Shown here one piece after another: positions 3,665 to 61,740 of a stretch of DNA of 64,000 bases. The position numbers and the translations under genes are program-made. The notes below the pieces were generated by a model. The model was given only the letters and a program-made list of their open reading frames with translations, searched no databases and was not told the DNA's origin. Every line of letters begins with the position of its first letter. Position 1 is the first letter of the stretch. This DNA comes from Escherichia phage vB_EcoM_SA35RD: sequence record OL960577.1. One strand, given 5' to 3'.

Positions 3665-5480
3665 AGGACATCCATTCTTTACGAAGTTCTGAATCATCAC
3701 CCATCAGCATTTCAAAGAGTTCTTTCCAATTTTCAGGAAGTTTAACTACGTCGTACACAGGGTTCTGAATCATTTCACGATACTCTGACTTTTCAAGGGA
3801 GCCCAATCCCTTGATGTATCGAATACTATGCTTAGGCAGTGTATCTTTAACTTCTTCATACTCAGCTACAGTATAAAACCATTTTTGAGTTTTGCCAATT
3901 TGTGCAATAATTACAGGTGTTTTAACAAAGCGAATACGTCCTTGTTCAAACAATTCAGGCCAATTACTAAAGAAAGCAAGCAAAGCAGGATAAATACTTC
4001 CAAGGCCGTCATGATCGGCATCGGTCATAATTGCAATATTACGATAGTTCGTATTCTCTGCCTTTTCACCAAGAATAAGACCTGTGATAGCACAGATATC
4101 AAAGAGCTCTTTGTTCTTCATCATATCAGCATATGACATACCCCAGCTATTCATCACCTTACCACGTAACGGGAATCCGCCGTGTAGTTCACGGTCACGA
4201 ACATCAATGAGATATCCAATTGCCGAATCACCTTCTGTTAAAAACAATGTCGTATCTGCATCTTTACCACATTGGTTAGCTTTAATATGCTTATGAACCT
4301 TAGCTTTAGTTGCCTTTTTAGCTGCTTTAGTTTCTGCAGCCTTTTCTGCCGCCAATTTACGAGCTAATGCTGCTTCAACAATAGGCATAATCAAGGCTTC
4401 ATTTTTAAGAAGTGCCTGAGCAATTTTCTTAGCATCTAATTGGATATGATTACGAATATCACCATACGTTGACGTTAAACGTTCTTTAGTCTGAGAATCA
4501 AAACGCATGTTGCTCATGTCTCTAATAAACATCAACATTGTGAGACATTCTTTAACACGAGCTTTAGTGACTTCAATACCATTATATTTCTTTTTAATGC
4601 CGGGCAAAAGATGTTCGCAGATATCATCCATTACACATTCAACATGATGACCACCATTTTTAGTATGGATGTTATTCACATAAGTTAAATGACGGAAGCC
4701 GTCTGGTGATGTTGTGAATGCTATAGAGACTTTATCATTTTCTTGAATGATATTATCTTCACCAAATTGTTTAGCAAATCGTTTAAAATTACCATCAACC
4801 TTTTTACCATTAAATGTGAACTTGATATCAGGATAAACGACTGCCAATGTTTGAAGTCGGTCTAAAGTAATATCTAAATAAATTTGAGATAAATTATGCT
4901 CTTCAAATGAAGAGAAATCAGGAGTGAAGATTACTTTAGTGCCTTTACCTTTAGATTTCTTAGAAGACCATGATTTGTTTTCCATTCCGTTTGAACAGTT
5001 AACAGTGATTTCATTTTCGCCATCTGACGTGATGCCTGTAAACAACGTAGAGAAGATATTAGTTAAACTACTTCCGACGCCGTTCATACCACCAGTCTTG
5101 CGTTCAGAATCATCACCAAAGTTACCACCAGCCTTTGGAATAGTCCAGGCTGCTACAGGACCAGGAATTTGTTCACCTGTTTGGTCGGTAACTAAACCTT
5201 GAGGAATACCACGTCCGTTATCTTCCACCGAAACTTGGTTATTTTTAATTTGCACATCAATTTTATTTGCAAACTTAAATGATGTACGAATAGCTTCATC
5301 AACCGAGTTGTCAATAATCTCATCGATTAATTTAACCAGACCAGGAACATATTCAACTTGTTGATATTTACCAAACAAAAAACGCTCGTGGGCTTCTTTA
5401 GCAGAAGAACCAATATACATACCACTGCGTTTCTTAATATGTTCTACATCTGACAATACCTTAATTTCATTTTTAATCAT
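3663..5480 (-). CDS. 39: DNA topoisomerase II large subunit, fused gp60+gp39 (GyrB-like ATPase)
   Basis: 605 aa single ORF, longer than T4 gp39 (516 aa), consistent with gene 60 and 39 fused; synteny. Confidence 0.75.
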   Translation of the reverse strand: MIKNEIKVLSDVEHIKKRSGMYIGSSAKEAHERFLFGKYQQVEYVPGLVKLIDEIIDNSVDEAIRTSFKFANKIDVQIKNNQVSVEDNGRGIPQGLVTDQTGEQIPGPVAAWTIPKAGGNFGDDSERKTGGMNGVGSSLTNIFSTLFTGITSDGENEITVNCSNGMENKSWSSKKSKGKGTKVIFTPDFSSFEEHNLSQIYLDITLDRLQTLAVVYPDIKFTFNGKKVDGNFKRFAKQFGEDNIIQENDKVSIAFTTSPDGFRHLTYVNNIHTKNGGHHVECVMDDICEHLLPGIKKKYNGIEVTKARVKECLTMLMFIRDMSNMRFDSQTKERLTSTYGDIRNHIQLDAKKIAQALLKNEALIMPIVEAALARKLAAEKAAETKAAKKATKAKVHKHIKANQCGKDADTTLFLTEGDSAIGYLIDVRDRELHGGFPLRGKVMNSWGMSYADMMKNKELFDICAITGLILGEKAENTNYRNIAIMTDADHDGLGSIYPALLAFFSNWPELFEQGRIRFVKTPVIIAQIGKTQKWFYTVAEYEEVKDTLPKHSIRYIKGLGSLEKSEYREMIQNPVYDVVKLPENWKELFEMLMGDDSELRKEWMS

Positions 5481-6848: not shown

Positions 6849-7373
6849 TCATTTTAGCAAAATAAAATCAACTTGTTCTGCCAATGAACGTCTAAACATT
6901 AATTGACAACTTCCGAGGATGAAATCAGGTGCTTCATAGACCGCGATGTAGTATCCTTTAGCTTTCAAGAGTTCAACATCCACCTGGTCATCAAACCATG
7001 CATAAACCGCGTCAACGCTTTCAAATCCAAAATAGAACCCTTGAGCCCAATCTTCACTCAATTCAAATGTGTACTCAATTCTATGGTATCTTAAGATATT
7101 TTGTTCAAGAAGTTTGTCTTCATTTACTGTAGGACGATTAGGGACATTATAGTTGTCGCCGTGATGGTAGAAGTTACCTGAGAGTATTCCATGCTTATCA
7201 AGGAACTCCCATGTTTCTTCAGAGTTGTCAGTGCCAGACCAACCGTAAGGTGAGCGAGGTTCTTTATTCCAAGAGGTTTCCCAAATTCTGACGGCTTTAC
7301 CGTCTTCGATAACAATTCCTGGTAATGATTCACGTTGAGTACAAAAACTACGTTCTACGCGGTAAACTAACAT
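6849..7373 (-). CDS. hypothetical protein
   Basis: 174 aa ORF; SD AGGAGA before ATG; promoter motif upstream. Confidence 0.45.
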   Translation of the reverse strand: MLVYRVERSFCTQRESLPGIVIEDGKAVRIWETSWNKEPRSPYGWSGTDNSEETWEFLDKHGILSGNFYHHGDNYNVPNRPTVNEDKLLEQNILRYHRIEYTFELSEDWAQGFYFGFESVDAVYAWFDDQVDVELLKAKGYYIAVYEAPDFILGSCQLMFRRSLAEQVDFILLK

Positions 7374-7432: not shown

Positions 7433-7852
7433 TTATGCGAAAGCAGCTGGGCTATATTTTTTAATTTGGAATTCAGGAACTACCATGAACTGACCAGCGA
7501 AAACGATGTTATAAAGCTTAACACCATCTTCTACCCAACGGTCGCTAATAAATCCGGCGATTTGCTTAGTTTTCCATGGCGTTCCATCAGTTGCCGCAGC
7601 AATAGTGAATTCATGGTCTTTTTCAACAGAAACTGATCTGCATAGTCCCCATTTGAACGCTTTTTCTTCTGGCTCAATGAACTGGCTTGAGACGTAGCCA
7701 ATATTACCATTAGCATCACGAACTTTAACTTGGTTACGACCAAAAACCGGATCACTCACAGAAAGAACTTCAACCAACTTCCCGGCAACTTTAGAGCGAG
7801 AAGCAACAGATACATATACGTAATCACCTGTAGAGAGATTTACAATATTCAT
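7433..7852 (-). CDS. hypothetical protein, tandem paralog family member 1
   Basis: C-terminal motif SDRWVEDGVKLYNIVFAGQF shared with the two upstream ORFs. Confidence 0.5.
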   Translation of the reverse strand: MNIVNLSTGDYVYVSVASRSKVAGKLVEVLSVSDPVFGRNQVKVRDANGNIGYVSSQFIEPEEKAFKWGLCRSVSVEKDHEFTIAAATDGTPWKTKQIAGFISDRWVEDGVKLYNIVFAGQFMVVPEFQIKKYSPAAFA

Positions 7853-7861
7853 AATAATTCC

Positions 7862-8317
7862 TTAAGCTTTACGAGGAGACACATAGCGAGTGATTTCAGA
7901 TTCTTTAACAACTCGGAAGTCACCTAAGAATACGATATTGTATAACTTTTCACCATCTTCAACCCATTGGTCACTGATGAAGCCGCACATAATATCAGTT
8001 TTGTTTGGATAACCATATTCGTCGATGAAATCAAATTCTTTATCAGTCCGGAATTCAACGCCTTTGCAAAGGGCCCATTTGAACTGTACATTAGGTTCAG
8101 TAGAAGCAAAATGAGCGCTCACATGAGTTTCCAAGAATTTAGGACTTACGTAAGCGTACTGAGTTTCAGTTTTTCCAGAACTAGGAATGATTCGAACTTT
8201 AACTTCTTTAACACGTCCAGTGCCATTAGTACGAAGTCCTACCACTTCAACTAGACGACCTGCAGCTTTAGAACGAGATGCAGACGATACACGCTTAATT
8301 TCACCAATAGTAATCAT
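7862..8317 (-). CDS. hypothetical protein, tandem paralog family member 2
   Basis: Motif SDQWVEDGEKLYNIVFLGDFRVV; start moved to MITIGEIKR after SD, since longer ORF would start inside promoter. Confidence 0.5.
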   Translation of the reverse strand: MITIGEIKRVSSASRSKAAGRLVEVVGLRTNGTGRVKEVKVRIIPSSGKTETQYAYVSPKFLETHVSAHFASTEPNVQFKWALCKGVEFRTDKEFDFIDEYGYPNKTDIMCGFISDQWVEDGEKLYNIVFLGDFRVVKESEITRYVSPRKA

Positions 8318-8347
8318 AATTTCTCTCTCTTTGTTTAAATTGAATTC

Positions 8348-8377
8348 ATTATACTCCATCCATCCTTGGATGTACAA
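8348..8377 (-). promoter_or_regulatory. promoter cassette with internal palindrome (variant copy)
   Basis: TTGTAC ... CATCCA-TCCT-TGGATG ... TATAAT; both palindrome arms changed relative to other copies. Confidence 0.45.
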
Positions 8378-8379
8378 CA

Positions 8380-8874
8380 TTAATTAAGGATATTAACCAC
8401 AGCACTACGTGGAACTACACTAAAATCACCTGCATGAACAACGTTCAGAAGTTCAACACCGTCTTCAATCCACTGGTCAGTTACCCATCCATTTACTGGA
8501 CCTGCGAACGGACGTCGAATTGAAACATATTTACACAACAAATCAGTAGGCTCAATAGGCTTAATCAGGGTACCGTACATACAAGCGATATCCATATCAA
8601 TACAGATATCTTTAACGGGTTCTACTTCTTCAATCAACAGTTCAAAGTCGGTGCTTGGAAGGGCGGTAGTAGAAATTGTACCATATGAATTTTTAATTTC
8701 TAAGAATAACCAAGGGCCTTCAACTTGTTTGATGAAGTTAACAACAGTGAAACTATTACCTTGAGTGGCACCTAAAATTTCACAAAACTTTTCATAAGCT
8801 CGCACTGAAGCACCATACCAGTTGATTTGTTTTTCATCTTTCAGGATGTAAGTAGCCGTTGTATTGATATTCAT
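8380..8874 (-). CDS. hypothetical protein, tandem paralog family member 3
   Basis: Motif TDQWIEDGVELLNVVHAGDFSVVP; start moved to MNINTTAT after AGGAAA SD. Confidence 0.5.
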   Translation of the reverse strand: MNINTTATYILKDEKQINWYGASVRAYEKFCEILGATQGNSFTVVNFIKQVEGPWLFLEIKNSYGTISTTALPSTDFELLIEEVEPVKDICIDMDIACMYGTLIKPIEPTDLLCKYVSIRRPFAGPVNGWVTDQWIEDGVELLNVVHAGDFSVVPRSAVVNILN

Positions 8875-8904
8875 AATGTTTTCCTGTTTGGTTAAGATAG
8901 AAAG

Positions 8905-8934
8905 ATTATACTCCAACCATCCTTGGTTGTAAAC
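8905..8934 (-). promoter_or_regulatory. promoter cassette with internal palindrome
   Basis: GTTTAC-CAACCA-TCCT-TGGTTG-GAG-TATAAT; ~50 bp near-identical to copy at 50541-50590. Confidence 0.5.
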
Positions 8935-8939
8935 TGGTT

Positions 8940-9617
8940 TTATCGCTGTTTTACACTTAACGGGTCAGGATTCTCAGGGACATCTTCAAGGCCAAGCGCA
9001 TAACGCTGAGCATATTTTAACATCAAAATATCTTTAGCACAATCGTGAATACTATCATGGGCAACGAATCCTTTTAGCGTACCCATCGGTAATGGACACA
9101 TACTTAATCCTCGTGTCAACGAGTAAGCTTCGATTGCTGTACGAATATCACGTTGAGCCCAGAATTTAACCGGTTCTAATTTATCAGTATCAATATCTGG
9201 TTCAAGAACACCTTCATCACGATAGAGATCACGAATCAAATCTACCAAGATCGGGAAGTCAAAGCTCATACCACGGCACCACATCTGTGATTTCCATTGG
9301 TCAACTTTATTAGCTCGACAATAATATAAAAAGATTTTAATGCCTTCAAGCGTAGTGACATCGTCTTCAGACGGAGCCAGGTTTTTACGTGCTTCTGCTG
9401 ATTGTTCTTTCCACCATTTCATAGTGGATTTAGCGAAAACTCGCTTCCCTTTTTGAGAAGCTAAATTAAATTTAATTCGCTTACCTCGTTGAACAAGTTC
9501 TTCAAATGTTTCAACAACTTCAGGGTCCGAATTATATGCAATAACCGCAAGGTCAATAACAGCAGCTTTTGACGTATTGCCGAATGTTTCAAAATCTATA
9601 ATAACATCAGTGCTCAT
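8940..9617 (-). CDS. dexA: exonuclease A (DEDDh 3'-5' exonuclease)
   Basis: 225 aa, N-terminal IDFETFG motif; position before dda as in T4. Confidence 0.7.
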   Translation of the reverse strand: MSTDVIIDFETFGNTSKAAVIDLAVIAYNSDPEVVETFEELVQRGKRIKFNLASQKGKRVFAKSTMKWWKEQSAEARKNLAPSEDDVTTLEGIKIFLYYCRANKVDQWKSQMWCRGMSFDFPILVDLIRDLYRDEGVLEPDIDTDKLEPVKFWAQRDIRTAIEAYSLTRGLSMCPLPMGTLKGFVAHDSIHDCAKDILMLKYAQRYALGLEDVPENPDPLSVKQR

Positions 9618-20079: not shown

Positions 20080-20109
20080 ATAATAACACAACTACTGGAG
20101 AAGTAAACT
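20080..20109 (-). promoter_or_regulatory. T4-type early promoter-like element with RBS-pairing spacer
   Basis: GTTTAC-18nt-TATTAT-AGACCTATC; spacer AACTACTGGAG complementary to SD region CTCCAGTAGTT. Confidence 0.45.
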
Positions 20110-32935: not shown

Positions 32936-32993
32936 TTAATTTCCTTTAGACGAGTTATTGTCTTTTGTTTGTTGATGAACTTATTATACTCCA

Positions 32994-33013
32994 AATGGGA
33001 CCGAAGTCCCATT
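32994..33013 (-). other. stable hairpin (UUCG loop) between regA stop and gene 43 5'UTR
   Basis: AATGGGAC-CGAA-GTCCCATT; followed on minus strand by GGAGTATAAT and gene 43 SD. Confidence 0.45.
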
Positions 33014-41688: not shown

Positions 41689-42065
41689 TTTACCGCCTTA
41701 ACAATTTTAAGGTCAACGAATTTTTTCTTACGTTGATTTTTCATACGACGGATAGTCTTTTCAGAGATTTCATGTTTCTGATAAGCTTTAGATTCAACAC
41801 CAAATGCAGCAACGTCAAATTCAGAAAGAATATATTGTACTAGAATTTCACGAATAGAATTACGTCCAATTTTCTGGTCGTGTTTTTGCATGATTTCATA
41901 AAGACGGAATTCCCACGCGTCAAGAACTTGAGGAGTAACAATATTGCCGGATTCCAGAAGAGCAACAACTTTATCGAAAGCGAAAGAATTAACTACGTTT
42001 TTGATTTTAGTAGACATATTATTTTCCTCGGTTATTTTATTATCCAACGAGAGAATTATACTCAT
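41685..42065 (-). CDS. hypothetical protein
   Basis: 126 aa ORF. Confidence 0.4.
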   Translation of the reverse strand: MSIILSLDNKITEENNMSTKIKNVVNSFAFDKVVALLESGNIVTPQVLDAWEFRLYEIMQKHDQKIGRNSIREILVQYILSEFDVAAFGVESKAYQKHEISEKTIRRMKNQRKKKFVDLKIVKAVK

Positions 42066-42083
42066 CTCTCAAGAGTTTGTATA

Positions 42084-42323
42084 TTATTTTTTAAGCATGA
42101 AAAGTAAGTAATTTGTATCACGTGGAGTAATATCAACACCCATATCAAAGACGCCTTTATAGATTGGGTATTTGTTTTCGGTTGTATCGAAGCTGAAACT
42201 ATTTCCATCACAACTAACAGTAATAACATCTGTTAAAATGTCATACTCAATCCTAACAATTGAATCCCCAATTTTAACGTCGAGGTGTTTTTTGAATTTG
42301 ATAAAATCTAATTCTTGGGCCAT
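42084..42323 (-). CDS. hypothetical protein
   Basis: 79 aa ORF with promoter-like element upstream. Confidence 0.4.
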   Translation of the reverse strand: MAQELDFIKFKKHLDVKIGDSIVRIEYDILTDVITVSCDGNSFSFDTTENKYPIYKGVFDMGVDITPRDTNYLLFMLKK

Positions 42324-48869: not shown

Positions 48870-49275
48870 TATTTTTCCTTTCATCGATTAAATATGCAAT
48901 GCCAAATACAATACATGTAATAAAACCTGTTATACAGATAGAAACCAACAACACTGTACCAAAGAACCAAATCAAGTTATCTTTAGTAGTTTGTTTGATA
49001 TCCATCTCACGAATTTCTATAGCTATCGTATCACCTTTATTCAGAAGCGTATAAAACGAAGGTGATACACGCCTGTCAAAAACTCGTCCTTGCTCATCTT
49101 TATAGACTGCAATAAATTCTAATTTAGAATATTTTCCTGTAGATTGGCCTGAGATTAATTCCACTACCTCCACAGGAATTACTTTAGTTTCCATGTAAGT
49201 ATTCTGGCTGTTCCAAATGAATGGAATAATAGCAAAAACTAAAGCTGCGATAAAACAACGAAGGCTATATCTCAT
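48862..49275 (-). CDS. hypothetical membrane protein
   Basis: 137 aa; N- and C-terminal hydrophobic segments. Confidence 0.4.
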   Translation of the reverse strand: MRYSLRCFIAALVFAIIPFIWNSQNTYMETKVIPVEVVELISGQSTGKYSKLEFIAVYKDEQGRVFDRRVSPSFYTLLNKGDTIAIEIREMDIKQTTKDNLIWFFGTVLLVSICITGFITCIVFGIAYLIDERKNNV

Positions 49276-49580
49276 TATAATGTTCTCTCAAATTTGTGGA
49301 AGCATTTACGGCATTTCAATTTCAAGTTATCACTGGTCCAGTTAACCAGTTGGACTTGGATAGTTCCACATTCCGGACATGGATGTTTTGCTGCCGATTT
49401 GGCAGCATTTTCACGTCGTTCAACCATTTTCATTATTTCGTTCCATGCCGGAGGAACGAACTCTTCTTCACCATGAATTTTATCTCGCTGAACAAATTCA
49501 ATCTTTGAACTATCATCAATAAACTTAACTAAGCCATGATTAGTGCTCATATCAATATCCTCTAGAAGACGTAGGTTCAT
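49275..49580 (-). CDS. zinc-ribbon protein
   Basis: 101 aa; CPECG...CRKC. Confidence 0.4.
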   Translation of the reverse strand: MNLRLLEDIDMSTNHGLVKFIDDSSKIEFVQRDKIHGEEEFVPPAWNEIMKMVERRENAAKSAAKHPCPECGTIQVQLVNWTSDNLKLKCRKCFHKFERTL

Positions 49581-50527
49581 TATAACACCTCAATGGCATT
49601 TCGTAAACCATCCGCTTTCGCGTTCAGAGCTTTTAACGATTTAGTCTGTTCTTTAATCTGGGCTTCGACTTCTTTAAGACGAGATTTGAGATATTCACGT
49701 TCTTCGCTCAAGTTGTCAACTTTTTCTACTTTAGGTTCTTTAATAGTCTTAAGTTTATACTCGTTAGGGTTCTTCAACTTAATTTGAATGCGAGAACTGA
49801 ATAACATCGAACCGTTATCTTCGGTTTCGTCATACATTTCTACTACGTCCATGATTCTTAACATCATGCGAAGTTTATAAGACAGCGAACGAACGGTTTT
49901 ATTGTGCTTCTTAATTTCTTCAGCTTTCATGGTGCCGAGATTACGTGAGTAGTAATAAGGAACCTGGATATCAATTGACAATGATGCGTTACCATTACCT
50001 GTTGGTTTGAATACTGCAGTAACCCAATCTTTAACATGAACTTTATTTGTACGATCATCGCCACCAGTGAATAATTTACGAGAATGTTTAAAAAGCATAT
50101 TCACTTGGTTATTGAATTCACAAGCAAATTTATCAGCAAATTTAGTTTCAGGAATGGTAGATAACCAATCAGCCAAATGAGTCTTTTTAACATCATTAAC
50201 AATAGTGAATTCAACCAAATCGGTTTTAGATGTCACAGATTTAATAAAGCTCGGCTTCATAAAGTTTTTAATGTTATCGCGAGCTACAGTAGAAGATAAT
50301 AAACGAGAACGTTTGAACCATTGAAGCAGCGTCCCTAATGAATGAGAATATGCATTTTGAGTATCTTTACAGATATGATTTTCTTGGCCTGTGTATGTAA
50401 GAAAATCACGAAGAATACTATAAACCACACCTTTATGTGGAACATCAGTCCAAGCACCAGTAGCACGTTGAGCGTGAGCGTTAGCGATAAGACCGGCAAA
50501 GTATTCAATGTAATGTGAACGTGTCAT
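49580..50527 (-). CDS. hypothetical protein with C-terminal coiled coil
   Basis: 315 aa; heptad-rich C-terminus; palindrome-containing promoter cassette upstream. Confidence 0.5.
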   Translation of the reverse strand: MTRSHYIEYFAGLIANAHAQRATGAWTDVPHKGVVYSILRDFLTYTGQENHICKDTQNAYSHSLGTLLQWFKRSRLLSSTVARDNIKNFMKPSFIKSVTSKTDLVEFTIVNDVKKTHLADWLSTIPETKFADKFACEFNNQVNMLFKHSRKLFTGGDDRTNKVHVKDWVTAVFKPTGNGNASLSIDIQVPYYYSRNLGTMKAEEIKKHNKTVRSLSYKLRMMLRIMDVVEMYDETEDNGSMLFSSRIQIKLKNPNEYKLKTIKEPKVEKVDNLSEEREYLKSRLKEVEAQIKEQTKSLKALNAKADGLRNAIEVL

Positions 50528-50554
50528 AATATTTTCCTCTCGTTAAGATAGGTT

Positions 50555-50584
50555 CATTATACTCCAACCATCCTTGGTTGTAAA
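50555..50584 (-). promoter_or_regulatory. promoter cassette with internal palindrome
   Basis: GTTTAC-CAACCA-TCCT-TGGTTG-GAG-TATAAT. Confidence 0.5.
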
Positions 50585-50589
50585 CTGAT

Positions 50590-51549
50590 TTATGATTTTA
50601 ATGCATTCATTGCGTTAAAAAGTTTAGAGTACTGCAACTGGAGATTGGTCACCACCTGTTGAGCATCACGAAGCTTAGCTTGTGCTTTGTCAAGTTCAAC
50701 GGACAGTTGGTCTACAGTAGCCTTGATTTGGTTGTAATGATAATCTTCGGCCGGAAGAAGGTCATTAGAAACATTTAGTTTTACTGCCGACAGTTTGCAC
50801 ACATTTGGCAAACCTTTAAACATACCAGATTGTGCTGGAGAATATGCGCCTAGAACCTCTGCATTACCGACTGGTGTTGCTGTAATATTGCCTTCAAACA
50901 ATGCATTTTCCTTTTTAAGATTTTGATAGTATTCAGAGTCTTTGTGCCACCATGGCGCAGGAACCTTTTTACCAATAGATACACGAGCTTGGATAGCGAT
51001 ATGGCCCTTATTCTTGATAGGGTCGATAATATTAAGCTCACGAGAATAAATTGCTTTAATCTGGTGGATATTATCACCTAAAACTTCCAACGCTTGGTGA
51101 AATACACGAGCAACGTTATCATTCTTAGGTTTATACGTAAGAGTGAACTCATTCTCACTGATAACCATGATTTCCAACTTATCATAAGTATATTTCAAAT
51201 GTTTCATGTTAATTGCTTGAGGACGAATACGAGAAGCAATGGCCATCAGATTGTTAAGGTTATTCCGGAACTGCTTAGCGAAATATTGTCCTTCACCGCC
51301 AATACAAAAATTACGAAGTTTCTGTTTGGCCAATAAACGGCTGAACTCACCATTTTTAATGAACTCTTTAACGGGTGTGTTAGTAACACATTCAAATTGA
51401 GTAAACTTACGAGAATTAATCCCATAATACGAACAGATTTCCTCAATCTCTTCAGGAGTCTTTACAGGCATACGGATAGGATTAGGTCCTGGAGTATATG
51501 CGTTCGAGGTAAATTCTTTGATAAGTTCTCTACGTGTAATAAAAGCCAT
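50590..51549 (-). CDS. hypothetical protein with C-terminal coiled coil
   Basis: 319 aa; GAGGAA SD; palindrome promoter cassette upstream. Confidence 0.5.
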   Translation of the reverse strand: MAFITRRELIKEFTSNAYTPGPNPIRMPVKTPEEIEEICSYYGINSRKFTQFECVTNTPVKEFIKNGEFSRLLAKQKLRNFCIGGEGQYFAKQFRNNLNNLMAIASRIRPQAINMKHLKYTYDKLEIMVISENEFTLTYKPKNDNVARVFHQALEVLGDNIHQIKAIYSRELNIIDPIKNKGHIAIQARVSIGKKVPAPWWHKDSEYYQNLKKENALFEGNITATPVGNAEVLGAYSPAQSGMFKGLPNVCKLSAVKLNVSNDLLPAEDYHYNQIKATVDQLSVELDKAQAKLRDAQQVVTNLQLQYSKLFNAMNALKS

Positions 51550-51575
51550 TTTATATTCCTCATGTTGAAAAATTT

Positions 51576-51605
51576 ATTATACTCCAACCATCCTTGGTTG
51601 TACAT
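51576..51605 (-). promoter_or_regulatory. promoter cassette with internal palindrome
   Basis: GTACAA-CCAAGGATGGTTGG-AG-TATAAT. Confidence 0.5.
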
Positions 51606-52600
51606 CATTCCTTAAGAAGTTTTACTACCTGAATAAGATTAGCTCGTTCTGTTTTATTTTTACCATTTAAGCCTGCTAATCGTGAGATTTCATCGTCAGT
51701 CTGTTGAATAGTTACATTAAGTTCGTTAATCAAAGCTTCAAAGTATTTGATTTGCTCAGCATGTTTTGATTCAAATTTCTGAACCGGAATAACGTCTTGG
51801 TTTAGTTCATCAATAAGGTCTTTAAGAGCATCTTCTTGGTTGATATCATATTCAACTTCTTTTATTTCTTCAACGAGCTCGTCTTTATATCTAACGTCTT
51901 TTAGTCCTGGTGCTGGTCCTGAAATCTCTTCTTTAAGAGTACAAACATATCCAATACGGTATCCAATGCCGTCTCGCTTGATATCAACTTCGTCGATAAA
52001 TCCACAATGTTTAAGCCCGGAGCCGATTATGTCAAAATATCCTTGACGTCGTCCTTCAAACGTTACACGAACTACTAAGACAGTTTTACCTGCAACCTTT
52101 TGAAGCTCACATTTATAAAAGTCAGTTGAACCTGAATAACGTGGATGAGTTTTAAAGTTCATCTGACGATCTAGGCCCATTTGTAAGCGTGCTGTTACGG
52201 CCATAAAACGTGTTTGGTTCTCGTTAAGATGAGCAACAATCCATTTCAAAGGCATTTTACACTGTTCACGGCCGAACAAATCGGTACGTCCTAAATTACG
52301 CAGGATATTGTTAGAGTTAATCATCGACAGAACGTTAAGTTTATTCAGCGCGCTGAAGATTCCATCAGCCATTGATTTTCCATAACCTTTACACGCTTTA
52401 ATAAGTGCTCGCGGCAGATTAGTATAGATTTCAGACGGCATATGAAAATCAAATTTACTAACCAGTAATTGATGAACTTGGATAGCAATTTGTTCATAAT
52501 TAAGTGCTCTGCGATCGTTATGGTCTTTAAACCACACTTTAATCTGTGAAGCACATAAACCGTTAATTTCATGTTTTACCGCATCAGATGTAATGCTCAT
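51605..52600 (-). CDS. hypothetical protein with C-terminal coiled coil
   Basis: 331 aa. Confidence 0.5.
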   Translation of the reverse strand: MSITSDAVKHEINGLCASQIKVWFKDHNDRRALNYEQIAIQVHQLLVSKFDFHMPSEIYTNLPRALIKACKGYGKSMADGIFSALNKLNVLSMINSNNILRNLGRTDLFGREQCKMPLKWIVAHLNENQTRFMAVTARLQMGLDRQMNFKTHPRYSGSTDFYKCELQKVAGKTVLVVRVTFEGRRQGYFDIIGSGLKHCGFIDEVDIKRDGIGYRIGYVCTLKEEISGPAPGLKDVRYKDELVEEIKEVEYDINQEDALKDLIDELNQDVIPVQKFESKHAEQIKYFEALINELNVTIQQTDDEISRLAGLNGKNKTERANLIQVVKLLKE

Positions 52601-58115: not shown

Positions 58116-58144
58116 ACTATAACACAACCTGAGGAGAAGTAAAC
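58116..58144 (-). promoter_or_regulatory. T4-type early promoter-like element with RBS-pairing spacer
   Basis: GTTTAC-17nt-TATAGT; spacer GAGGAGAA inverted with SD region TTCTCCTC. Confidence 0.4.
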
Positions 58145-61281: not shown

Positions 61282-61740
61282 CTAGATTTTAATCACTGCT
61301 TTAGAAGCTTTTCCTGGTAGTCGTTTACTGTTAATAATAGCCATTCTACATTGAAGAGTCTTCATTTTGAATGTCGGATTTTCGCGACAAACTGTAAGTC
61401 CTAACCAAAGATTTCCGTCAGTTATTTCTAAACGGCCTGGACGATACTCGACACCTTCGACAAAATCTTCATCAACATCTGGACGTGCCGGCATTGATAA
61501 AAATTCTGCAACTTCTTTAACGTGATTTTTTACTTTATGAAATAATTCAAAAACGTAATTCTCATCTATTTCTCTCTGGATGGCACGATCTAAGAGATGT
61601 TGAGAATACTTGATATGAAAGCCTGGTAGTCCAAGAGACTTTGCAGCATCTTTTATACCGGCATTTATTTTGCGGAACTCCGTTTCAAAGATTCGACGGA
61701 GTTTATTACGACGGATAAAAACGTCTGAATTGATAGTCAT
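61282..61740 (-). CDS. regB: RegB site-specific endoribonuclease
   Basis: 152 aa; KYSQHLLDRAIQREIDE...RPGRLEITDGNLWLG matches remembered T4 RegB; synteny. Confidence 0.7.
   Translation of the reverse strand: MTINSDVFIRRNKLRRIFETEFRKINAGIKDAAKSLGLPGFHIKYSQHLLDRAIQREIDENYVFELFHKVKNHVKEVAEFLSMPARPDVDEDFVEGVEYRPGRLEITDGNLWLGLTVCRENPTFKMKTLQCRMAIINSKRLPGKASKAVIKI

Follow-up and report, generated by a model that had tools for sequence, protein, structure and literature searches.

Repeated intergenic cassettes that combine a strong sigma-70-type promoter with a stem-loop, known as PeSLs, have been described in phages RB49 and phi1, and the PeSL sections of that work place the stem-loop most often in the spacer from the -35 to the -10 box, or in overlap with the latter (Arbiol et al. 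2010, PMC2839356). The PeSL work was extended to T4/PST and KVP40/nt-1 (Comeau et al. 2014, PMC4122927), RB69-type phages lying outside the set analysed in the PeSL sections of the two papers. The repeat considered here was found in a 64-kb window (the whole stretch of DNA analysed, 64,000 nucleotides of Escherichia phage vB_EcoM_SA35RD, sequence record OL960577.1), which represents an RB69-like coliphage of the genus Mosigvirus with 97-98.5% identity to Mosigvirus phages. It occurs in four copies, each with the layout of an early promoter and a small palindrome in the spacer, and judged by sequence these cassettes are a local and largely ordinary example of the known PeSL class, new to the RB69 group.

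As in the PeSLs covered by the relevant sections of those two reports (PMC2839356, PMC4122927), a stem-loop is found in the spacer of an early promoter, the copies occupy short gaps of variable regions beside accessory open reading frames (ORFs) and are repeated along the genome, and an ORF is removed or inserted when the neighbouring copies on its two sides recombine. Unlike the RB49/phi1 elements described there, the cassette stem is A/T-rich, 6 bp long and without a U-tract, so that the terminator function of the RB49/phi1 stem-loop would not be expected of the cassettes. They also differ from the PeSLs of the same sections in having 3-4 near-identical copies per genome instead of dozens of loosely similar ones, and a stem that covaries across genera and is followed by an invariant GGAG; covariation evidence for stems is not reported in the PeSL sections of either paper. 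A literature search returned no relevant match to the cassette sequence itself, and no Rfam family (0) reached the gathering score across the whole 64-kb window.

The repeats are best explained as one strong sigma-70-type early promoter with a PeSL-type spacer hairpin, the copies of which recombine and the stem of which is kept by pairing, with the hairpin acting in read-through RNA; this combined reading is held with moderate confidence. Its repeat, promoter geometry, pairing covariation and recombination junctions are direct observations.

Cassette Copies and Promoter Features

All four copies are located on the minus strand and are named by the first base of the -35 box on that strand. Copy 8933 (copy 1, 8891..8940) lies directly after the stop codon of dexA (8940-9617) and ahead of the first MotB-family gene (8380-8874); it reads CAG TTTACA ACCAAGGATGGTTGGAG TATAAT CTTT CTATCTTAAC, with the -35 box TTTACA at 8933-8928, the stem-loop CAACCA-AGGA-TGGTTG at 8929-8914, GGAG at 8914-8911, the -10 box TATAAT at 8910-8905 and CTATCTTAAC at 8900-8891. 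Copy 8376 (copy 2, 8341..8380), a diverged allele reading GT TGTACA TCCAAGGATGGATGGAG TATAAT GAAT..., precedes the second MotB-family gene (7862-8317) and has its -35 box TGTACA at 8376-8371, its stem-loop CATCCA-AGGA-TGGATG at 8372-8357, GGAG at 8357-8354 and the -10 box at 8353-8348. Between nrdC.5 (DUF7235, 50590-51549) and nrdC.3 (49580-50527) lies copy 50584 (copy 3, 50541..50590), which reads CAG TTTACA ACCAAGGATGGTTGGAG TATAAT GAAC CTATCTTAAC (-35 box 50584-50579, stem-loop 50580-50565, GGAG 50565-50562, -10 box 50561-50556). Copy 51604 (copy 4, 51571..51605) is situated between nrdC.6 (51605-52600) and nrdC.5 and reads GA TGTACA ACCAAGGATGGTTGGAG TATAAT AAAT... (-35 box TGTACA 51604-51599, stem-loop 51600-51585, GGAG 51585-51582, -10 box 51581-51576). 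Copies 8933 and 50584 have about 46 bp in common, consisting of CAGTTTACAACCAAGGATGGTTGGAGTATAAT and CTATCTTAAC separated by 4 nt, and copy 8376 can be written TGTACATCCAAGGATGGATGGAGTATAAT, its arms both altered yet complementary (CATCCA/TGGATG). The dyad CAACCA-AGGA-TGGTTG sits in the spacer, its bases 1-2 being the final two bases of the -35 hexamer.

A 22-mer, CCAAGGATGGNTGGAGTATAAT, has four minus-strand matches (8348-8369, 8905-8926, 50556-50577 and 51576-51597) and no match in 100 dinucleotide-preserving shuffles of the window (0 expected, 4 observed). A first-pass annotation had listed near-identical cassettes at these minus-strand places, together with a diverged copy in which both arms had changed with the dyad kept, and both its coordinates and this description were confirmed. 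The palindrome that it reported does lie in the spacer, but the loop is AGGA on the minus strand, the TCCT given for it being the plus-strand reading. The ORF list of the window contains in-frame N-terminal extensions across copies 1 and 2, not copy 4; a coding reading of the repeat was rejected, because the promoter features account for its conservation.

All four copies combine a -35 box of TTTACA or TGTACA with 17 bp of spacer and TATAAT, a perfect -10 box, and are found 25-35 nt upstream of the ATG of an ORF with a Shine-Dalgarno (SD) sequence, in the direction of early transcription. Copies 8933 and 8376 scored 10-11 of 12 against the consensus, and the hexamers belong to the same set in all four. 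The GTTTAC-type -35 box, 17-bp spacer and -10 box are those of T4/RB69 early promoters, and the copies coincide with 4 of the 58 early promoters predicted in RB69 (Nolan et al. 2006, PMC1524935), Pe:8947 corresponding to copy 8933, Pe:8387 to copy 8376, Pe:51019 to copy 50584 and Pe:52042 to copy 51604. The four promoters themselves were therefore already predicted in RB69; the spacer palindrome is not described in the searched text of that paper. Furthermore, T4 has P_motB at the position of copy 8376, and the transcript start of P_motB has been seen by primer extension (Durand et al. 2006, PMC1702504). The geometry, the RB69 predictions at all four sites and the P_motB counterpart bear out the proposal of a promoter cassette, and homology and the published prediction suggest that the copies are active as promoters in this phage. 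Each lies in a short gap between two early genes and, besides the -35 box, spacer and -10 box, has a local start-site box, CTATC; each would drive the gene downstream (two MotB-family genes, nrdC.5 and nrdC.3).

The early-promoter consensus of the window is (G)TTTAC(A/T), 16-17 bp, TG(T/A), TAT(A/T/G)(A/G)T, with CCTATC following close to the start site, and since the window promoter listing shows CCTATC in this position, the CTATCTTAAC of copies 8933 and 50584 belongs to the general promoter consensus. The cassettes are without the extended -10 TGn and have GAG at -15 to -13, as against TG(T/A) in 14 of 15 other early promoters of the window, and their upstream regions are only partly A-rich, short of the UP region typical of T4 early promoters. 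They form a promoter subclass characterised by the lack of TGn, a perfect TATAAT and GGAG at -16 to -13. For annotation purposes, such intergenic repeats should be labelled early promoters, and not unknown repeats or protein-binding sites.

Recombination between Copies

Mosigvirus genomes carry 3-4 cassettes, which are intergenic and whose neighbours (MotB paralogues, nrdC.3, nrdC.5 and nrdC.6) are accessory genes varying between genera; some 250 public genomes contain the cassette. In phage F2, nrdC.6 is joined to nrdC.3 via one chimeric cassette, flanked on the 5' side as copy 51604 is and on the 3' side as copy 50584 is; its two alignments with the window have 27 bp in common, which is exactly the shared core, and 1,020 bp (nrdC.5 and one cassette) are missing. 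A metagenome contig (L228) has the same nrdC.6-nrdC.3 structure, and in another (L209) dexA is joined to the second MotB gene, also via one chimeric cassette. In all three the alignment overlap (27-63 bp) is confined to the cassette and exactly the intervening gene is absent. Two modules on the minus strand are thereby defined: nrdC.5 with one cassette (50583..51575), absent from F2 and L228 with the junction in the shared cassette core, and the first MotB-family gene with one cassette (8375..8867), absent from L209 with the junction in the cassette. As to the direction of the three events, deletion and insertion are indistinguishable from these data.

These structures show that the copies recombine with one another, so that a gene between two of them is lost or gained as a unit and always brings its promoter along. 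Such exchange is probably also what keeps the copies alike. The PeSL idea, in which cassettes serve as portable joints shuffling the accessory genes of T4-type phages, is in this way extended to the RB69 group, and clean natural examples are provided by two loci, each of which occurs both with the gene flanked by cassettes and without it. Membership of the PeSL class and the copies as recombination sites are points beyond the first-pass annotation, as is the assignment of a fifth relative to another promoter class (see below).

Gene duplication was considered as the source of the repeat and rejected. The three MotB genes are paralogues of one another, but similarity was not detectable among the three ~320-aa genes nrdC.6, nrdC.5 and nrdC.3 around copies 3 and 4, and because these are mutually dissimilar, and the cassette is common to two unrelated loci, duplication does not explain the repeat. 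The MotB-family paralogues stand in tandem at 7433-8874 (minus strand), between dexA and a motB.2-like gene, with a cassette before the first two only; this three-paralogue array is not present at that position in T4 or Dhakavirus.

Covariation of the Spacer Stem

Within the window, the evidence for selection on the stem is weak, because there is one double change only and the copies are related. The palindrome alone is also statistically weak, as a perfect 6-bp hairpin occurs in 0.64% of random 19-mers from the window and the four copies are not independent. Other genera were therefore the main source of support. Loci of nrdC.3, nrdC.4 and nrdC.5 were retrieved from IMG/VR with single proteins (5 loci each), no conserved block for profile-based retrieval being found for these loci. 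The Mosigvirus stem is CAACCA/TGGTTG. Upstream of nrdC.4, a paralogue of nrdC.3, the cassette reads CATCCA-AGGA-(T/C)GGATG in Dhakavirus (JS98-type), with a core identical to that of copy 8376, and CTTCCA-AGGA-TGGAGG in Gaprivervirus (VR25), with a U.G pair. In one metagenome Mosigvirus the arms are CAGCCA...TGGTTG and include a G.U pair. In T4, AGCCA-AGGA-TGGCT followed by CGGAGTATAAAT is found upstream of nrdC.3, where the hairpin and GGAGTATAAAT are kept and the -35 box has decayed to TTTAAA, and in the T4 nrdC.4 promoter the spacer hairpin has the AGGA loop on another stem (CCACA-AGGA-TGTGG) and lies 4 nt nearer the -10 box.

Pairs were counted on 11 distinct cassette alleles, in which 90.9% of cells were paired. 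The variable pair 7-18 was U-A in five alleles, A-U in three, G-C in two and G.U in one, and was unpaired in none. The covariation score was reached by 0 of 500 shuffles, slid registers were only 9-42% paired, and the inner CCA-AGGA-TGG was invariant across genera. This cross-genus covariation provides direct comparative evidence for a small stem constrained as a paired structure, a conclusion supported mainly by other genera and not by the window alone. The selection on structure proposed in the first pass is accordingly upheld through the pairing seen across genera (A-T, T-A, G-C and G.U), for which the window by itself would have been insufficient.

The stem-loop, with a 6-bp stem and a 4-nt loop (-6.9 to -7.3 kcal/mol), is located inside the spacer. 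RNA from the cassette's own promoter starts downstream of the 5' arm and therefore cannot form the hairpin, which is possible only in RNA reading through from the gene upstream or in single-stranded DNA that arises transiently. The stem would be maintained by base pairing, and we infer that the hairpin works as a structure for the processing or the 3' end of read-through RNA and not as an intrinsic terminator.

A number of points weigh against this reading. The hairpin is weak (about -7 kcal/mol), two of the six stem pairs vary, and in several phages an A.C mismatch replaces the A-T pair that closes the loop. As few as 3-4 mutational events, spread by recombination, may underlie the stem variants, and symmetric changes in quasi-palindromes can come from template-switch mutation without selection, as established for T4 rII. 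Folding of the sense and antisense strands of 19 promoter regions gave no strand bias (9/19), so that the assignment to RNA rests on two wobble variants, and the RNA-level role itself is one that we infer. Promoter activity, finally, is deduced from the consensus, the published prediction and the T4 counterparts.

Alternative Readings of the Repeat

A further possibility is that the hairpin and the GGAGUAUAA directly following it form an RNA-processing module of read-through transcripts, in which RegB/S1 would cut GG^AG and the hairpin would cap the 3' end of the upstream fragment; RNA begun at the cassette promoter would be without the site and would escape cleavage. This is considered unlikely, and the resemblance of GGAGUAUAA to the RegB/S1 site of the T4 motB leader is regarded as a lead only. 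That leader sequence, GGAGUAUAAAA, is a minimal/model RegB/S1 substrate, with the consensus GGAGRAYARAA (Durand et al. 2006, PMC1702504), and shares GGAGUAUAA with the cassette, which reads GGAGUAUAAU(C/G/A). RegB is encoded by this phage, the regB endoribonuclease gene of the window being located at 61282..61740 on the minus strand (Pfam REGB_T4, E = 4.5e-69). GGAGUAUAA begins 0-4 nt beyond the end of four unrelated hairpins, those of the cassette, T4 nrdC.3, T4 motB and the regA-gene 43 gap; every cassette allele has GGAG, though the -10 box does not need it; and the cassette-driven genes use GGAA/GAGA SD sequences, most other early genes having GGAG(A)AYAAAA. However, the cassette copies match the RegB consensus at 8-9 of 11 positions, the first G of GGAG takes part in the stem, and structure inhibits RegB. 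The copies depart from the consensus at positions 10 and 11 (PMC1702504), the former being U, which is rare in cleaved sites, and the latter, among the most conserved A positions, being A in only one of four copies. Unlike the T4 motB site, which lies downstream of its promoter and inside the transcript, the putative cleavage site of the cassette coincides with the -10 box (PMC1702504) and would therefore be present only in read-through RNA. Furthermore, GGAGTATAAT doubles as -16 to -7 of the mapped T4 P43 promoter, and because the same bases serve that promoter, their conservation may reflect promoter function.

Should the RegB link be true, promoter cassettes would be tied to mRNA processing, which would explain the GGAG before the -10 box in several T4-type promoters. 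On this doubtful supposition, about 30 bp would hold three signals, namely a promoter for the downstream gene, a RegB/S1 site doubling as the -10 box and present only in read-through RNA, and a protective 3'-end hairpin, and transcripts of one gene would meet different fates according to their start point. As part of the same tentative proposal, in T4/RB69-type phages the module of hairpin and GGAGUAUAA would recur ahead of motB, nrdC.3 and gene 43, the stems being unrelated.

Several separate observations concern SD sequences and leaders of this kind. The GGAA/GAGA-type SD sequences of the four cassette-driven genes are at 8874-8895, 8317-8335, 50527-50545 and 51549-51565 (minus strand), and in most other early genes of the window the SD is GGAG followed by an A-rich run, which amounts to a RegB-type site. 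The T4 motB leader (AF158101, motB.1-motB gap, ~7142-7290) resembles two tandem units of GAGTATAA, the first being the -10 box in the loop of a GGGACC...GGTCCC hairpin and the second the known RegB site GGAGTATAAAA; the hairpin has G.U variants in relatives (L024-L030). In two of the cassette copies, at 50562-50545 and 8354-8337 (minus strand), GGAGTATAATG makes a good SD/ATG pair followed by a 4-codon mini-ORF (MNLS*, MNSI*), which would occur only in read-through RNA. GGAG motifs cut by RegB include the SDs of very small ORFs (Durand et al. 2006, PMC1702504).

It is rather improbable that the palindrome is without function, that is, a by-product of a GT-rich spacer, homogenised by recombination and with symmetric changes arising from hairpin-templated (quasi-palindrome) mutation. 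T4-type early promoters do have a GT-rich stretch 5' of -12, according to Nolan et al. (2006, PMC1524935), the copies demonstrably recombine, the covariation rests on few independent events, and a chance 6-bp hairpin is expected in about 0.6% of 19-mers. Set against this, four kinds of pair, the G.U intermediate among them, keep the variable position complementary across five lineages, an AGGA-loop hairpin with another stem occurs in the T4 nrdC.4 promoter, and the hairpin has outlasted the -35 box upstream of T4 nrdC.3.

The first-pass annotation had offered, as one option for the dyad, the site of a dimeric regulator, such that a phage or host DNA-binding protein sitting in the spacer from the -35 to the -10 box would repress or activate all four promoters. 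The perfect 6+6 dyad with its 4-bp centre, in the spacers of four co-oriented promoters, and the CCA-AGGA-TGG core invariant across genera are in keeping with an operator, and since two of the driven genes encode proteins of the MotB family ('modifier of transcription'), autoregulation is imaginable. However, the variable position conserves complementarity (A-T, T-A, G-C) and not base identity; the G.U and U.G intermediates are symmetric only as RNA pairs, on the sense strand; the AGGA-loop hairpin is shifted 4 nt toward the -10 box in the T4 nrdC.4 promoter; and the hairpin survives upstream of T4 nrdC.3 despite the decayed -35 box. These four observations disfavour a dimeric-protein site, of which no candidate regulator was identified, and favour the hairpin that had been named as the other option; an operator is accordingly judged quite improbable. 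Least probable of all, and indeed very improbable, is that the stem-loop serves as a terminator or attenuator of transcription from the upstream gene, as proposed for PeSL stem-loops: one G/C-rich PeSL stem-loop did terminate in a lacZ assay, according to the PeSL sections of Arbiol et al. (2010, PMC2839356), and the position right after the upstream stop codon fits, but an intrinsic terminator was rejected on sequence grounds because the stem is not G/C-rich and has just 6 bp (about -7 kcal/mol), no U-tract follows it (GAGUAUAAU), a terminator scan of copies 8933 and 8376 found nothing there, and the RB69 TransTerm list has no entry at the corresponding sites.

The regA-Gene 43 Element

The first pass had also named a fifth relative, upstream of gene 43. 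The element is real, shares its TATAAT side with the cassette and carries another hairpin, as had been stated; its loop, on the other hand, is TTCG and not CGAA, and it is a putative P43-type promoter and not a cassette copy. It lies in the regA-gene 43 gap on the minus strand (32983..33013), with the hairpin AATGGGAC-TTCG-GTCCCATT (33013-32994), T, GGAG (32992-32989) and TATAAT (32988-32983), and has only the 11 nt of TGGAGTATAAT in common with the cassette. In RNA terms the order is the regA stop, AATGGGAC-UUCG-GUCCCAUU, U, GGAGUAUAAU and gene 43. At the same place T4 has AGGGGC-UUCG-GCCCCU UAUUUGGAGUAUAAU, and the start of the T4 middle promoter P43 has been mapped to 29933 (Hinton 2010, PMC2988021), 5 nt after the TATAAT of the T4 counterpart. 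T4 P43 and the gene-43 element are alike in the succession of regA stop, UUCG hairpin, TTTGGAGTATAAT and gene 43 (PMC2988021). Unlike the cassette, the element has no -35 box and has a MotA-box-like (G/A)CTTC in the hairpin loop (GCTTC in T4, ACTTC here). This ACTTC sits where a MotA box is expected, and an ACTT centre is known from P46-type promoters (PMC2988021); the element is absent from the RB69 middle-promoter predictions. By sequence and position, the gene-43 element would be the counterpart of the T4 middle promoter P43, of a different promoter class from the cassette. The UUCG hairpin after regA covaries in its own right, with AGGGGC/GCCCCT in T4 and AATGGGAC/GTCCCATT in this phage.

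Spacer Folding in Other Early Promoters

In T4 genes e, soc, 49 and I-TevI the promoter is located inside a hairpin, and because of this only the longer RNA initiated upstream can form that hairpin (Uzan and Miller 2010, PMC3014915). The cassette differs from this plan in that its hairpin is local to the spacer, with no pairing to the downstream SD (PMC3014915). Only the four cassettes of the window have self-folding spacers (-6.6 to -7.0 kcal/mol), those of the other early promoters giving 0 to -2.8 kcal/mol. Many of the latter resemble the e/soc/49/I-TevI plan (PMC3014915), with an anti-SD in the spacer: in the 15 other early promoters, spacer sequence is complementary to the 5' untranslated region (5'UTR) or SD of the same promoter, with a mean of -12.4 kcal/mol for cognate pairs as against -8.8 kcal/mol for permuted ones (p ~5e-5), an example being TCTCCAGTAGTTG...CAACTACTGGAGA at 20107. 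For the cassette spacers, the pairing energy with their own 5'UTRs was no better than with non-cognate ones. Complementarity between spacer and own 5'UTR was noted for the minus-strand -35 hexamers at 58143, 57429, 53245, 42383, 20541, 20107, 18797, 13455 and 7427, among others. Read-through RNA of these other promoters would fold a hairpin across the -10 box, often sequestering the ribosome-binding site.

Other Promoter-Like Sites and Annotations

Within the last codons of nrdC.3 (49607-49579, minus strand), an early-promoter-like TTTACG, 17 bp, TATAAT, GAACCTA precedes a 101-aa ORF at 49275-49580. At ~42061-42100 (minus strand), ATGCTTAAAAAATAATATACAAACTCTTGAGAGATGAGTATAATTCTCTC contains a MotA-box-like TGCTTAA together with GAGAGA...TCTCTC complementarity around the -10 box. 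In the public record of phage ATK47 (NC_055708), an 11-bp feature at 4321-4331, inside dda, is labelled 'direct repeat sequence7 posible binding site of StbAB', which is a strange label in a lytic phage of the T4 type.

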